From assembly GCA_963766775.1 (NCBI GenBank), contig CAVYBP010000010.1:35861-99860 (forward strand): DNA of 64,000 nt, given 5' to 3'. Made by a program: the position numbers and the translations under genes. Under the pieces are notes generated by a model. The model was not told the DNA's origin and ran no database searches. It saw nothing but the letters and a program-made list of their open reading frames with translations. Of this stretch, positions 14,801 to 22,494 are shown one piece after another. The stretch's first letter is position 1. The number at the start of each line of letters is the position of its first letter. Source of the stretch: an uncultured Phycisphaerales bacterium (GTDB taxonomy: Bacteria > Planctomycetota > Phycisphaerae > WQYP01).

Positions 14801-15174
14801 GCACCGAATTAACCGACGGCACATCCGTCAAGAGCGGCGACCTCATCGAAGTCGAACTCGCCATCGATTCCAAGAACGACTATGAGTACATCCTGCTCGA
14901 AGATATGAAGGCCGCCGGTTTTGAACCCGTGGAAGTCCGCAGCGGTTACAACGGCAACGAAATCGGCGCCTACGTCGAATTCCACGACGAACGCGTGGCC
15001 TTCTTCGTCCGCTGGCTCACCCGCGGCAAACACTCCGTCAGCTACCGCGTCCGGGCCGAAATCCCCGGCTCCTTCAGCGCCCTCCCCACCAAAGTCAGCG
15101 CCATGTACGCCCCCGAACTCAAAGGAAACTCCGACGAGATCCACCTCCGAATCACCGACGCCGCAACACCCTAA
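8810..15174 (+). CDS. Bacterial alpha-2-macroglobulin family protein (~2100 aa, many indels)
   Basis: Signal peptide [27 protein letters not shown]2 motif [47 protein letters not shown]; thioester [36 protein letters not shown]. Confidence 0.93.
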
Positions 15175-15207
15175 ACCGCCCATTCCGAAACACCTCCCCA
15201 AACTCCT
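15158..15207. repeat. 50-bp direct repeat, copy 1 (partner at 21004-21053)
   Basis: ACGCCGCAACACCCTAAACCGC(C/T)CATT(C/T)CGAAACACCTCCCCAAACTCCT, 48/50 identical between copies. Confidence 0.95.
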
Positions 15208-15212
15208 AACAT

Positions 15213-15302
15213 GTCGTCGGCCTAATCATCCTCGCCGGCCTCTTCCTCTTCGTCACCATCAACGACATTTCACTCTTTAACGCATTTCAACCACACCTAT
15301 AG
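15213..15302 (+). pseudogene. Start-less fragment resembling the C-terminal TM helix of RseP (site-2 protease)
   Basis: Reads VVGLIILAGLFLFVTINDISLFNAFQPHL*, resembling the RseP terminal G..L.L.L..FVT.ND motif; no in-frame upstream body. Confidence 0.4.
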
Positions 15303-15385
15303 CAGAAATTCCGAGACGCGACCAAGCGTTTGATAGAGTGAGATGAGTACATGCTTTACCCTACCTGCTTGAGAGGTAGGTATTT

Positions 15386-15457
15386 CCAAGCCTGCGCCCG
15401 AGAGGAAGCGGTTGTCACAGTCCTTGGAACGCCGACTTCCTTTCGGTCGAGGCTCGG
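15386..15457. repeat. Degenerate inverted REP doublet (REPIN-like)
   Basis: CCAAGCCTGCGCCCGAGAGGAAGCGG ... CCGACTTCCTTTCGGTCGAGGCTCGG are imperfect reverse complements; followed by TTTTTCCAACAGGCT, which resembles an IS/MITE terminus. Confidence 0.55.
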
Positions 15458-18600: not shown

Positions 18601-20296
18601 ACCAGAACCGGTGGCGGTGACGATGGTGGTGCCGTTTCCGCCGGGGGTGCTGATGCTAGGATGGGAACTTCCATTGACAGTTCCGCCCTGGCCACCGACA
18701 CCACCGATGGAAGAGGCGATGGCAGCGATTCCGCCGCCGCCGGGGTTGCTGGCATTCAAGATGCTGGTGGCGTTACCGGCGAGACCGGTTTGCGTGCTGA
18801 ACCCGGTCCCGCCGGCACCGCCGACAGCGGATTGGCTGAGTGTGAGCATACCGGCGGTGGAACCGCTGACGACATTGTTGAGAGAAACGGAAGCGCCGCC
18901 ACCGCCCTTGAATTCGCCCAAACCGCCTGAGCCGCCGGTGGCGGTGGCGGAGATGGAGACGGGTGCGGCGGTGGAGGAAAAGCCGGAGGCACCAACGGAG
19001 GCGGTTCCACCATCGGGGCTGGGAGAAGGATTGAACCAGCCGCCCGAGCCGCCGGTTGCATTGACATTGATGTTGAGCGCGCCGCCGCCGGAATTGACGG
19101 CGGTGAGGAAAGAAGCGGCGTTGCCGGCGATGCCGCCGGATTGTCCGAAGCCGCCGCCGCCCGCGACGGTGGTTTGGGTCAACGTCAGGTTGCCGGCGGT
19201 GGAACCGCTGACGGCGTTGGTCAGGGATTCATTTTCCGCCATTGCCAGCGACGAGTCCATTTCCGGCATTTCCGCCGTTGCCGCCCTTGGCTGTGGCGGA
19301 GACAGTGACGTTGGAGCCGGCGGTGGAGGAGCCTTGAGCGGAGGCAACGGAAGGGGCGGCGGAGCCGGCAAAGTTTCCCGAGCCGCCGTTTCCACCGGCG
19401 GCGGTTGCGGAGACGTTTACGCTTTGGTTAGCCGAAGTGCTGCTGCCGCTTGCGGTGGAAGAGGCTCCTCCGCCGTTGCCACCGTTTCCGACGTAGTTGC
19501 CGGAGACGTATCCGCCATCGCCACCGATGGCGGAATCGGTGACGGTGATGTTGCCGGCACCGCCGAGGCCGTTGGCCTGCGATGAACCGGTTGCAAAGCC
19601 GCCGTTACCGCCGTTTCCGTTTCCCATGGAGATGCCGCCGGTGCCGCCGTAGGCAGTGCCATTGGCGGTAGCGGTGTTGAGGGCGTTGGCGATGAGGGTG
19701 TTGAACGCGTCGCCGCCGCTGCCGCCGGTTCCGTTGGTTCCGGTCTGGCCGCCATTGCCGCCAGCGGCGTTGCCGGTTGCGGAGGCGGATCCGAGGTTGT
19801 TGGTCGTGGAAGAGAGATTGGTTCCAGTGCCACCTTTGCCACCGTTGCCGGCATTTCCAGAGACGCCGGGTGCAATGCCAGTTCCTCCGGTACCGCCTGC
19901 GCCGCCATCACCGGCCAGGCCGTAGGATGAGCTGGTTTCCAATCCGGAAGAAGAGAGGGTTGTGTTGGCTGTTGAGGTGGCGGCTCCGCCGTCGGCACCG
20001 TTTTGACCATTGCCGCCATTGTCACCGGCTGTGGTCGCACTGGTTCCAGGAATTCCAGCACCCCCGGTGCCACCGTTGGCCTGGGCGGTGTTGCTGGAAT
20101 CGGAGGGAGTGGAGGCAGTGGCAACGGCGGGCCCACCGGGGCTTGAGGGATTTCCGGCGGTACCGGTTTCAATGTCCGTTGCTCCGAAGATTTTTCTTTC
20201 GCCGAGACTGAAGATCGTTAACGAAACAGCCATCGCCAGGAGCGTGGCGTTCATCTGATATCTTCGATTTTGGGGGAGGGTTTTGGTTTCCTTCAC
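15607..20296 (-). CDS. Large Gly/Ala/Ser/Thr-rich PEP-CTERM surface protein (~1560 aa; one indel ~19232)
   Basis: N-terminal hydrophobic leader, GGxGGxGG repeats, C-terminal PVPEPATAFSAVLSTFILTTRRSRR (PEP motif + TM + Arg cluster); track ORFs 19229-20296 and 15607-19395 join at a homopolymer. Confidence 0.9.
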
Positions 20297-20751
20297 GTTT
20301 CCACCTCGCGATTGCCGGACCCGGTGTTCCTATTGCACAAACATATAGTCCGCTTCGGAGGCGGGCAAGAAATCTCGGCGAATTTAATAGCGATTGAACG
20401 ATGCGAACTGGCGTGTTTACGGACAGTGGCAATCTGGGCAAATGGGGAGAGATGCTGGTGGAGCTTAGTTGTGGCATTGGAAAGGATGCTCTCGTGTGTG
20501 ACTTGCGCCGGAGGCTTTCTGGCGGACCTCCAAAGGCAGAGTCCGGAACTGTGTCGTGAAATTGAAGCACAAGGAGTCCTTTATACGCATCAGAAGGAAC
20601 AGGTCCCCTGCTATCGACTGGCCCGAGGACTCATGGCCCTGGCACTGCGGCAGAATCCGTCCAGCGTTTTACAGAATGCCTGATTCCAAAGGGCGACGCG
20701 CTGCCTGAAGGATCAATGGCCCGAACGAGGATCGGCGAGCATGGAGCTCAA

Positions 20752-20956
20752 ATAAAATAAACGCTGGAATCGCGAACACCGATTGTCCCGAACCCCCCAT
20801 CCTTCAGGAACGCTTCCGACGAACCTTTCGTCGCGGGTACCTTCTGTCCATACTCGGCAAGGGGGGAGACTTCAGTTCTGCCGCCGGGTACGTCGATGGG
20901 GTGCTCAGGCGCGGAAGCACGCACGTTATCCCTGCCGCTTGGATCGCCAACGCACA
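20752..20956 (-). ncRNA. Candidate structured ncRNA (~190-200 nt), possibly 6S-like
   Basis: On the minus strand, 5' GCGUUGG-C-GAUC pairs with 3' GAUUCCAGCGU; CCUGAGCACCCCAUC pairs with GAUGGGGGGUUCGGG; inner GUACC/GGUAC, CGGCA/UGCCG and CGACGAA/UUCGUCG stems; U-rich tail; upstream TTGAGA-N17-TATAGA. Confidence 0.5.
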
Positions 20957-20988
20957 TTGCACCTCTATAACCATCGAGCTCGCTCATC

Positions 20989-22494
20989 TCAACGGCCCAA
21001 GACACGCCGCAACACCCTAAACCGCTCATTTCGAAACACCTCCCCAAACTCCTCTCGCGTCCCCGCGAACTTCGCCGAATTCCACAAATCAAACCCGCGA
21101 TACTCCCACCACAAAATAACCCACCTCGCCCCCTCCGCCTGCTTTTTCACCCTTGCGATTTCCGACCTCGTCGGTATCCCCGGCTCCGGAAACCACGCAT
21201 CCGGAAGCTCCAATGGGACCCCCCTGAGCGAGGAGGGATCGGGGCATCCATTGGTCATGATCAGGGCATGATCCCCCCCCAAAACAGCTCCCAATTCACC
21301 CCATTCCCGCACCAAATCCGCGTCCGCCCACAGATATCCCGTATCGCGATTACGAATTTTATACCTCCACCCATTGTAAATATCCCCCGCCACCTGATCA
21401 TAAGACGACAAAAAAAGCCCCGCCAAAACCATAACCACCCCAACCCGAGCCACTTGCCGCAATGGCAAAATAGTCACCAATAACGACAGCCCCAACATCG
21501 GCAAATACGAATAATAACTCCACGACCCACTCCACCCATAAAACCCCACCAAAAACGCCGTATGCAAAACCCCCATCGTAAAAATCATCTCACCCCGCAC
21601 CCCTACCCTCCACTTCCTCACCGCCCACACAACCCCCATAACCCCTGCCACCGCCGCCACTAAAAACACCCCCGCCGCCGTGAAAAAATCGTCCCACGGA
21701 TGCGCGGGCCACCAAAACTCCCGCCCACTCCGCGCAAAAAAACCAAACCCCGTCGCCGCATACGTCGCCGCCCCCGTCGTCGGCAACAACGTCCTCACCA
21801 CCGGCCCAACCCCCATCCAAACCCCCAGCCCGCCAAAAGTAACGATCACCACCACCGCCGCCGGCATCAATTCCCGCCACACCCTCCGAAAGTTACCTCG
21901 CCCTTCCCACAAGATCATCACCACCAGAATCAATCCATAAACATACCCCATCGACGGCTTTACAAAGACACACGCCGCCATCAGCGCCAGCGCCCCGCCC
22001 CGCCTCCCTTCCGCCTGCGACGCCAGCGCCAGCAAAATAAACATCGCCTCCAGCGGATGCGTCAGCGTCAAATACGCCGGCATGATCGCCGTCGGCAACG
22101 CCATCACAAAAATGACAATCCCCCACCCCGACACCCCCGCCGCCACCAAAATACGCCCCATCGCCCACGCCATCACCATCTCCGCCGCCAGCGTCAGCAC
22201 CAAAAACGCCGCCGCGCTCCGACCCAGAATCGCAAACCCAATCCGCCCATACAGCAACGACAAAAGCCCATGCGTGTACCCAAAATCCACCGTCGGAACG
22301 TACCCCTTCGACAGCAGCATATCCCCCTTGAGCACCGTCCCCGGATCATAAAAAGCAAACTGCCCCCAGTCCGCAACCTGTGCCGTCGGCAGCCGCAACG
22401 CAAAATTGACCAGCAGCATCCCCGCAATCAACACCGCCAATGGCCACACCCGGCGCGGCCTCTCAGCGGCTGGCTCTTTGAATGCGTTCGTCAT
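20989..22494 (-). CDS. Polytopic membrane protein, putative GT-C-fold (ArnT/PMT-like) glycosyltransferase
   Basis: Many TM segments, loop after TM1 with YDPG and VPTVDFGYTHGLLS, ACVFVKPSMG motif, soluble C-terminal domain. Confidence 0.6.
   Translation of the reverse strand: MTNAFKEPAAERPRRVWPLAVLIAGMLLVNFALRLPTAQVADWGQFAFYDPGTVLKGDMLLSKGYVPTVDFGYTHGLLSLLYGRIGFAILGRSAAAFLVLTLAAEMVMAWAMGRILVAAGVSGWGIVIFVMALPTAIMPAYLTLTHPLEAMFILLALASQAEGRRGGALALMAACVFVKPSMGYVYGLILVVMILWEGRGNFRRVWRELMPAAVVVIVTFGGLGVWMGVGPVVRTLLPTTGAATYAATGFGFFARSGREFWWPAHPWDDFFTAAGVFLVAAVAGVMGVVWAVRKWRVGVRGEMIFTMGVLHTAFLVGFYGWSGSWSYYSYLPMLGLSLLVTILPLRQVARVGVVMVLAGLFLSSYDQVAGDIYNGWRYKIRNRDTGYLWADADLVREWGELGAVLGGDHALIMTNGCPDPSSLRGVPLELPDAWFPEPGIPTRSEIARVKKQAEGARWVILWWEYRGFDLWNSAKFAGTREEFGEVFRNERFRVLRRVLGR
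21004..21053. repeat. 50-bp direct repeat, copy 2 (within the 3' end of the GT-C-like gene)
   Basis: Matches 15158-15207 with two C/T differences. Confidence 0.95.

Follow-up and report, generated by a model that had tools for sequence, protein, structure and literature searches.

How a gene for a giant secreted protein came to stand between two convergent genes, in a segment that renews the end of one of them and encodes no recombinase, is the question raised by the locus considered here. It lies in a 64,000-nucleotide stretch of DNA, referred to throughout as the window, which covers C10:35861-99860, part of a 324-kb contig in the 4.5-Mb, 11-contig genome of an uncultured Phycisphaerales bacterium. 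Between the gene for a bacterial alpha-2-macroglobulin (A2M) and the gene for a membrane protein with a predicted GT-C glycosyltransferase fold (P0001, hereafter the GT-C gene), a preliminary description drawn up from the DNA letters had picked out a 5.8-kb island, bracketed by direct repeats of a gene's 3' end, and had put it forward as an undescribed mobile cassette system. Our answer, which we hold at roughly even confidence, is that the island is a decayed, recombinase-less remnant of site-specific integration at the 3' end of the GT-C gene, resembling a cis-mobilizable element (CIME), and that its repeats correspond to attL and attR. This reading is preferred because the structure of the islet fits the published description of such elements. 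It starts from features that are observed directly in the DNA, namely the repeats, the preserved reading frame, the foreign polarity of the insert, the absence of a recombinase and a set of cross-referenced gene fragments.

The two repeat copies (Table 1) agree at 48 of 50 positions, both mismatches being C/T, and their similarity breaks off sharply at either border. BLAST of the 50-mer recovers exactly two copies in the whole genome (E 1e-14 to 1e-17), the next-best match being a partial one of 22-25 nt within an unrelated frame on contig C1. Read on the minus strand, copy 2 encodes EFGEVFRNERFRVLRR, which is followed by VLGR and a stop codon as the end of the GT-C open reading frame (ORF). 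Copy 1, read on the same strand, encodes 16 residues followed by R and a stop, giving a tail of the form ...RRR-stop that is itself preceded by a stop codon, and the A2M stop codon (15172-15174) falls within it. The duplicated 3' end and the complete alternative C-terminus overlapping the A2M stop, both of which had been pointed out beforehand, are thus found as described, and the insertion is gene-preserving, as had also been claimed: the GT-C frame is intact and closes with four new codons, its former tail surviving as an orphan. The repeat is non-palindromic, and among the repeat pairs listed there is no inverted pair at the island borders. The island shows neither the 2-15 bp target-site duplication with terminal inverted repeats of a transposon nor the attC with IntI of an integron.

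The insert also differs from its surroundings in strand polarity. GC skew ranges from +0.03 to +0.28 in intervals confined to 15300-20999 and from -0.2 to -0.55 in the flanks, which is the opposite skew that the preliminary description had reported. Throughout the genome, either C or G predominates at third-codon positions, and which of them does so tracks blocks of DNA strand rather than the direction of the genes. The plus strand is C-rich in both flanks, where the plus-strand genes for A2M, GT2, STAS and MoaA are rich in C at third positions (0.52-0.64 in A2M) and the minus-strand GT-C gene is rich in G (0.64). The cargo gene of the island, which lies on the minus strand, is rich in C at third positions, giving a G-rich plus strand from about 15300 to 20900, just inside both repeats; the island therefore sits in the wrong polarity for its surroundings. 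Along contig C10 as a whole, GC skew of +/-0.3-0.5 changes sign in blocks of approximately 10-80 kb, and these blocks suggest a very strong strand-specific mutation bias together with many rearrangements.

No recombinase was found. The profiles PF00589, PF00239 and PF07508 have no match in the window, and Pfam searches of the island ORFs, and at E <= 1 of six-frame pieces of 15208-15606 and 20255-21003, gave neither a match nor an integrase remnant, in keeping with the earlier impression of an integrase-free interior. The closest tyrosine recombinase match on the contig lies about 48 kb away.

Just inside the left repeat lies a fragment of a second gene, rseP, which encodes a site-2 protease. 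Positions 15210-15281 match the tail of the real rseP gene on contig C8 with 93% identity over 73 aligned columns, so the RseP-like remnant noted at the outset is genuine. The real gene leads to a second islet that mirrors the first. In locus L023 (G000:C8:208000-227999), rseP occupies 11947-14088 on the minus strand and is preceded by a 1.5-kb insert (islet 10411-12020), whose GC content is 51% as against 59-61% in the flanks. A second copy of the rseP tail, more diverged, is located at about 10411-10475 and ends 3 nt from the stop codon of a convergent neighbor; the two tail copies on C8 have a core of 20 nt in which they do not differ, and are roughly 87% identical over about 46 nt. The C8 islet also holds, 48 bases inside its left border, 123 bp of the GT-C gene (residues 394-436) with 93.5% identity. 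The cargo here is one ORF (10760-11587) for a secreted protein of 275 amino acids that matches no known family, and again there is no recombinase. Each islet, then, has the tail of its own target gene duplicated around it and harbors, directly within its left border and in matching relative orientation, a piece of the gene that the other islet targets.

Reciprocal fragments of this sort cannot be chance, and the two insertions are for this reason taken to share one history. The reciprocity is what is new here and what a textbook account would not contain. Searches with the last 45 amino acids of RseP and with the last 130 and 30 amino acids of the GT-C protein gave no further tail copies in the genome. 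At the rseP loci of relatives, a tail repeat is seen in none of five and the cargo gene stands beside rseP in none of five. In a three-way alignment, the two rseP decoys, that is, the fragment in the window and the extra tail on C8, are not closely related upstream of the 20-nt core. The idea that the window fragment might be a hybrid of both C8 tails was dropped, as this alignment does not discriminate.

As we picture the process, an incoming circular DNA would have shared around 50 bp with the GT-C tail, and a single crossover within the shared stretch would have inserted it where the GT-C and A2M genes converge. From then on the GT-C gene would have used as its end the copy brought in by the circle, today's copy 2 with its VLGR-stop, and its earlier tail, today's copy 1 with its RRR-stop, would have been displaced by 5.8 kb while still overlapping the A2M stop. 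What was delivered in this way would be a gene for a giant, Gly-rich secreted surface protein together with the 0.75 kb of DNA upstream of that gene. Of these steps, the circular intermediate and the crossover are inferred by us, as is the participation of an integrase. The window and C8 islets would both stem from a common history, in which DNA was integrated, accreted or captured from the flanks. The integrase would have been lost, unless it was always supplied in trans. In its present state the islet would be expected to move only with outside help, or to be lost by rare recombination between the 50-bp copies.

The following table brings together the features of the locus.

Table 1. Features of the island and of the genes on either side, in window coordinates.
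Feature	Position	Strand	Remarks
Bacterial alpha-2-macroglobulin gene, ~2,090 codons	8798..15174	+	several frames in the assembly; stop codon in repeat copy 1
Repeat copy 1 (attL-like)	15158..15207		orphan copy of the penultimate 16 codons of the GT-C gene; plus strand gives the last 5 A2M codons and stop
Island interior, 5,796 bp	15208..21003		GC-skew polarity opposite to both flanks; no recombinase found
rseP (site-2 protease) 3'-tail fragment, 90 bp	15210..15299	+	2 nt inside the left boundary; 29 codons; one base missing just before the native stop position
REP-like motifs	15306..15475		degenerate copy at 15306-15335; inverted pair/hairpin at ~15364-15475
Cargo gene, secreted Gly/Ser/Ala/Thr-rich giant protein, ~1,548 amino acids	15607..20254	-	signal peptide; sub-threshold PEP-CTERM-like end; extra base near 19232 splits the gene
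Non-coding stretch upstream of cargo gene, 749 bp	20255..21003		last 15 bases (20989-21003) form the new GT-C end (VLGR and stop)
Target gene, 501-amino-acid polytopic membrane protein with predicted GT-C glycosyltransferase fold	20989..22494	-	present in 22 of 24 family genomes
Repeat copy 2 (attR-like)	21004..21053		part of the functional 3' end of the GT-C-fold gene

Integrative and conjugative elements (ICEs), along with integrative and mobilizable elements (IMEs), are described in PMC5704250 as integrating in the 3' ends of protein-coding genes, such that one of the flanking repeats contains the end of the gene. Their decay is said there to give rise to CIMEs, which keep attL and attR without genes for integration and transfer, and tandem accretion is described at such sites; the ICESt1-related elements at the 3' end of fda in Streptococcus thermophilus (Pavlovic 2004 and Bellanger 2011, as cited in PMC5704250) provide an example. 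The window island is similar to these decayed islets in lying at the 3' end of a protein-coding gene, in leaving that gene intact and in having the gene end within one of its repeats, copy 2 being in frame as the GT-C tail. Equally similar is its lack of an integrase or of transfer genes in the Pfam, six-frame and recombinase-profile searches, and an inner fragment of a gene tail is what accretion would be expected to leave. A recombinase-less insert with repeats that contain the 3' end of the target is in fact how PMC5704250 defines a CIME, and because site-specific integrative elements are already known to end up in this form, the undescribed mobile cassette system that had been claimed is not supported. 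There are differences too. The window island, unlike the CIMEs, has no detectable homology to an ICE or IME, no cognate element that bears an integrase was found for it, its inner fragment comes from a different target gene (rseP) rather than from the same att site, and its host is an uncultured soil bacterium far removed from the firmicute models.

More conventional islands are found in the same genome. At tRNA genes, direct repeats of 42-52 bp with an adjoining tyrosine integrase match delimit C2:141609-173151, C2:434508-471186, C3:316475-345559 and C5:442931-461085, and the pair at C3:525755-589088 has a repeat of the same size class with an integrase match alongside. The window islet is like these tRNA islands in that a short direct repeat duplicates the 3' part of the target, their inserts ranging from a few kb to tens of kb; it is unlike them in that they have a tyrosine integrase match beside one repeat and repeats that are mostly 100% identical. 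A 6.5-kb island at a tRNA-Met gene (C6:680894-687410), flanked by a repeat pair of the same 42-52 bp class, contains a Prim-Pol/D5 helicase gene and, next to the tRNA, an ORF of 432 amino acids; it was not counted as a recombinase-less case, given that this ORF may be a divergent integrase, and neither was a 52-bp repeat on C1, which brackets housekeeping genes. A census of short two-copy repeats across the genome, of which the gene caller covered 52%, recovered the tRNA islands and no further clear gene-tail islet. The survey did bring up repeat pairs around segments of 1.0 kb (C4:150560-151696; 65 bp, 98%) and 1.7 kb (C2:709548-711357; ~120 bp, 99%) with no obvious recombinase. It also showed that the last ~250 bp of a 344-codon ORF (C2:335435-335681) has an apparently intergenic copy, 81-96% identical, at C4:161875-162094, as an orphan tail, and it listed C5:320846 with C10:263511 as another gene-tail fragment or short-repeat pair.

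Prophage e14 and phage 21, which integrate in the icd gene of Escherichia coli, carry a substitute 3' end of their target gene. The window island resembles them in being integrated inside the 3' end of a gene and in supplying an alternative C-terminus. They differ from it in that they encode their own integrase and phage genes and duplicate a longer segment, whereas the window island consists of one cargo gene and no recombinase.

A number of observations weigh against a CIME-like origin. No integrase or integrase remnant was found in or beside the island, no part of it is homologous to any ICE, IME or phage module, and searches of this genome and of the sampled relatives revealed no integrase-bearing cognate element with this repeat. 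A CIME should also be related to an ICE or IME that uses the same att site, and no such relation was found: the 50-mer exists in just two copies, none of 11 GT-C loci in relatives has a tail repeat, and the island holds no mobile-element gene. To the right of copy 1 there is a gene fragment and not a recognizable att arm. The island includes REP motifs of the host type, with which a foreign mobile origin is not required. Neither excision nor an empty site has been seen, and the contig pieces from public data are uninformative in this respect. Lastly, the non-synonymous site in the repeat is variable among the homologues (G in 0 of 11, E in 1 of 11), and no polarity can be derived from two differences; the Gly of copy 1 had been considered as the family consensus, and this was abandoned when re-alignment on the F-x-V-L anchor showed the site to be variable.

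The arrangement before the insertion can be approached through the relatives. A2M follows a GT2-STAS-HATPase block, in the order and direction seen in the window, in all three A2M-bearing relatives examined (G008, G003 and G010). In three other loci (G016, G015 and the metagenome locus L024) the HATPase gene is the immediate neighbor of the GT-C 3' end, and MoaA is the next gene past the GT-C gene. The direct juxtaposition of A2M and the GT-C gene, convergent and adjacent, is found in none of the three A2M-bearing relatives; in G008 the two genes are on separate contigs, in G010 they are 7 kb apart on one contig, and in G003 the contig ends about 800 bp past A2M. The empty site predicted by the preliminary description thus holds up as regards the synteny of the block and not as regards the adjacency itself, with G003 not judgeable. 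On account of the synteny in relatives, an A2M/GT-C adjacency would be the likely earlier state, and as a reconstruction for this lineage it is plausible and parsimonious. The DNA downstream of the GT-C tail differs across genera at most of the loci examined, the exceptions being the three with a HATPase neighbor. In G010, the 7-kb interval (L025, G010:C73, 10000-15000; L015 3915-6383) holds genes for a beta-helix protein, an epimerase, an integrase N-terminal-like fragment and a TPR/GT41 protein, with an FtsK/SpoIIIE-like gene just past the GT-C 3' end; it may be a mobile element at the same place.

Neither the cargo gene nor the tail repeat was detected at any of the 11 GT-C loci of relatives. 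Matches to the C-terminal domain of the cargo protein reach just 27-38% identity; they come from 10 of 44 family genomes, none of which is among the five relatives with the closest GT-C homologues. Judged by these sequence comparisons, the insert is lineage-specific.

Within the family, the target gene itself is conserved in 22 of the 24 genomes, and its product matches nothing in Pfam or NCBIfam. An AlphaFold2 model built from 12 sequences has a mean predicted local distance difference test score (pLDDT) of 80.8 and a predicted template modeling score (pTM) of 0.86. When this model was compared with the PDB by Foldseek, all seven matches at E <= 0.001 were GT-C enzymes (ALG12, AftD, DPY19, STT3 and ArnT), with E values of 6e-6 to 7e-4 and query-normalized TM scores of 0.40-0.54. 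The original designation of this gene as GT-C-like is accordingly apt at the level of the modeled fold. Residues D50, D58 and D70 are invariant across the 12 sequences and might include a catalytic acidic residue of the first outer loop. Homologues at 11 loci align through the repeat-encoded motif F-x-V-L-x-R and then diverge into variable tails of 1 to 13 residues; the homologue in L021 runs on, with no stop within the stretch read. Because the tails of the homologues align through this motif, copy 2 is taken to be part of the genuine GT-C gene, and with tails this variable either observed ending, of the copy 1 or the copy 2 type, would be acceptable for the protein. Among the genomes searched there is no other member of the genus. 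A metagenome scan for the gene gave one locus, at 50% identity, and database proteins that match the GT-C C-terminus do not rise above 63%, with the exception of the genome's own fragment on C8; no genome, metagenome contig or database protein more than ~60% identical to the GT-C gene was found in these searches.

The cargo gene makes up most of the island. If the extra base at 19232 is ignored, it has about 1,548 codons and specifies a protein with long Gly/Ser/Ala/Thr-rich repeats. At its C-terminus, a VPEP...RRSRR pattern can be recognized by eye, followed by nine more residues. Against PF07589, however, this end scores 12.1 bits, under the cut-off of 20.7 bits, and the protein is absent from the 25 genome-wide matches to that profile. 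The genome has 23 PEP-CTERM matches above the cut-off and exosortase (PF09721) matches at two loci on C2. Of the giant PEP-CTERM gene originally proposed, the giant gene stands and the PEP-CTERM motif falls short of the threshold.

Between the rseP fragment and the cargo gene lie the repetitive extragenic palindromic (REP)-like motifs, which had been described as a REP doublet and are indeed copies of a conserved motif of ~29 nt with 112 BLAST hits genome-wide (E <= 0.01). These hits lie in intergenic DNA, alone or paired in inverted orientation and frequently together with conserved flanks, and the motif behaves like a REP or a family of small miniature inverted-repeat transposable elements. 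As the REP motifs are of the host type, the DNA of the island probably comes from this lineage or a close relative and not from a distant donor. The 749-bp stretch on the other side of the cargo gene matches nothing else in the genome and nothing in Pfam. Searches of the island and its boundary for Rfam families and tRNAs were negative, and the boundary regions fold no better than shuffled sequences (z-scores of -0.29, -1.28 and +1.14), so that the structured RNA that had been placed there is not supported.

The left-hand neighbor, A2M, possesses all of the MG2, A2M, TED and bMG10 domains, split over at least three frame changes. By comparison with one-frame relatives of 2,143-2,191 amino acids, these lie near 9975, 13480-13710 and 14560-14609; the adjoining genes of 1-1.5 kb are unbroken. 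Short contigs from near relatives have one base fewer at 13477, and in two runs there is one base fewer at 19232, precisely at the split in the cargo gene. Because of these missing bases, and of a completeness score of 80% despite just 11 contigs, some or all of the frame breaks are probably errors of sequencing or assembly; for A2M the alternative could be real decay. Public contigs that hold part of the stretch come from three runs in two studies and are short pieces of low depth, with 88-99% identity on 12500-23500. In none of the three runs is there cover for bins 20941-22041, and among the pieces listed neither repeat is bridged.

It would be hardly credible to attribute the whole island to a mis-join of the assembly at a short repeat. 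The indel problems, the frame breaks in A2M and the cargo gene, and the low completeness for so few contigs do lend themselves to such an explanation. The copies differ, however, at two positions and are only 50 bp long, both junctions run into coherent sequence (the GT-C frame in one case, the A2M frame in the other), the contig extends over 324 kb, and the cargo gene is found on short contigs from two other studies at 95-99% identity. The main rival, though an unlikely one, is that the island arose by RecA-mediated insertion of the Campbell type. Integration of non-replicating circles via short homology duplicates the shared segment, and is usually described with longer homology; we know of no natural examples in which the homology is 50 bp of a gene tail. 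With this process the window island has in common that the shared segment appears as direct repeats and that there is no dedicated recombinase. In a closely related strain, an imprecise excision or an illegitimate joining would have left the circle with 50-65 bp of a GT-C tail, after which it would have entered by a single homologous crossover with the resident tail. This would suit the sharp right border of the repeat, just 2 nt from another captured fragment (the rseP tail), and captured pieces that all agree with the resident genes at 93-96% identity, a level that a donor strain with a few percent of divergence would give. It would suit as well the host-type REP motifs, and the C8 islet, which is built alike with the roles of the two genes swapped. 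Set against these points, a homology of 50 bp is barely long enough for RecA to recombine efficiently, the existence of the circular intermediates is hypothetical, and site-specific integration followed by decay would be expected to leave the same pattern.

Less likely again is a rearrangement that involved no mobile element. An rseP-adjacent segment, consisting of the rseP tail, the REP motifs, the convergent cargo gene and its upstream region, would have been copied or translocated to the A2M/GT-C junction during break repair or template switching, with the duplication and the reciprocal fragment as by-products. The rseP fragment and the cargo gene are convergent, as natural neighbors would be, the fragments are exchanged between exactly two loci, and the many sign flips of skew along C10 suggest many past rearrangements. 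Yet the present rseP locus holds a different, low-GC cargo between its tail repeats, the cargo gene is missing beside rseP in the five relatives, and clean, gene-preserving direct repeats of 50 bp are atypical of break repair. A further proposal, which we consider improbable, unites the window and C8 islets in a family of recombinase-less, "tail-docking" cassettes with back-to-back GT-C and rseP decoys, which would enter by a single crossover at either 3' end, by means of host recombination or a borrowed integrase, and renew the last codons of the gene. It is the reciprocal fragments that leave this small room for docking independent of a dedicated recombinase. More improbable still is that such non-autonomous cassettes with decoy 3' tails are active and move back and forth between the GT-C and rseP sites, leaving both genes whole, an idea not far from that of the preliminary description. 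The existence of two recombinase-less islets at two gene tails, each with a piece of the other's target inside its left border and each with a secreted-protein cargo, is in accord with this. It is at odds with the finding of only two instances in searches of the genome with the rseP and GT-C tails, with the absence of tail repeats from the relatives' GT-C and rseP loci, with the divergence of the repeats (96%, and ~87% at C8), which suggests old, inactive insertions, and with the lack of close relationship between the two rseP decoys upstream of their core.

If the island is indeed a decayed remnant of site-specific integration, then it would represent a routine case in which genes for surface proteins enter at conserved gene ends and the mobility genes are subsequently lost. 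No new principle would be involved, and the case would be useful for the annotation of islands in poorly known soil lineages. Were docking at gene tails to prove true, it would constitute a gene-preserving route by which genes for secreted proteins are shuttled between fixed chromosomal docks. The presence of two recombinase-less islets at different gene tails, with reciprocal fragments of their targets, represents a rare direct trace of traffic between chromosomal integration sites.

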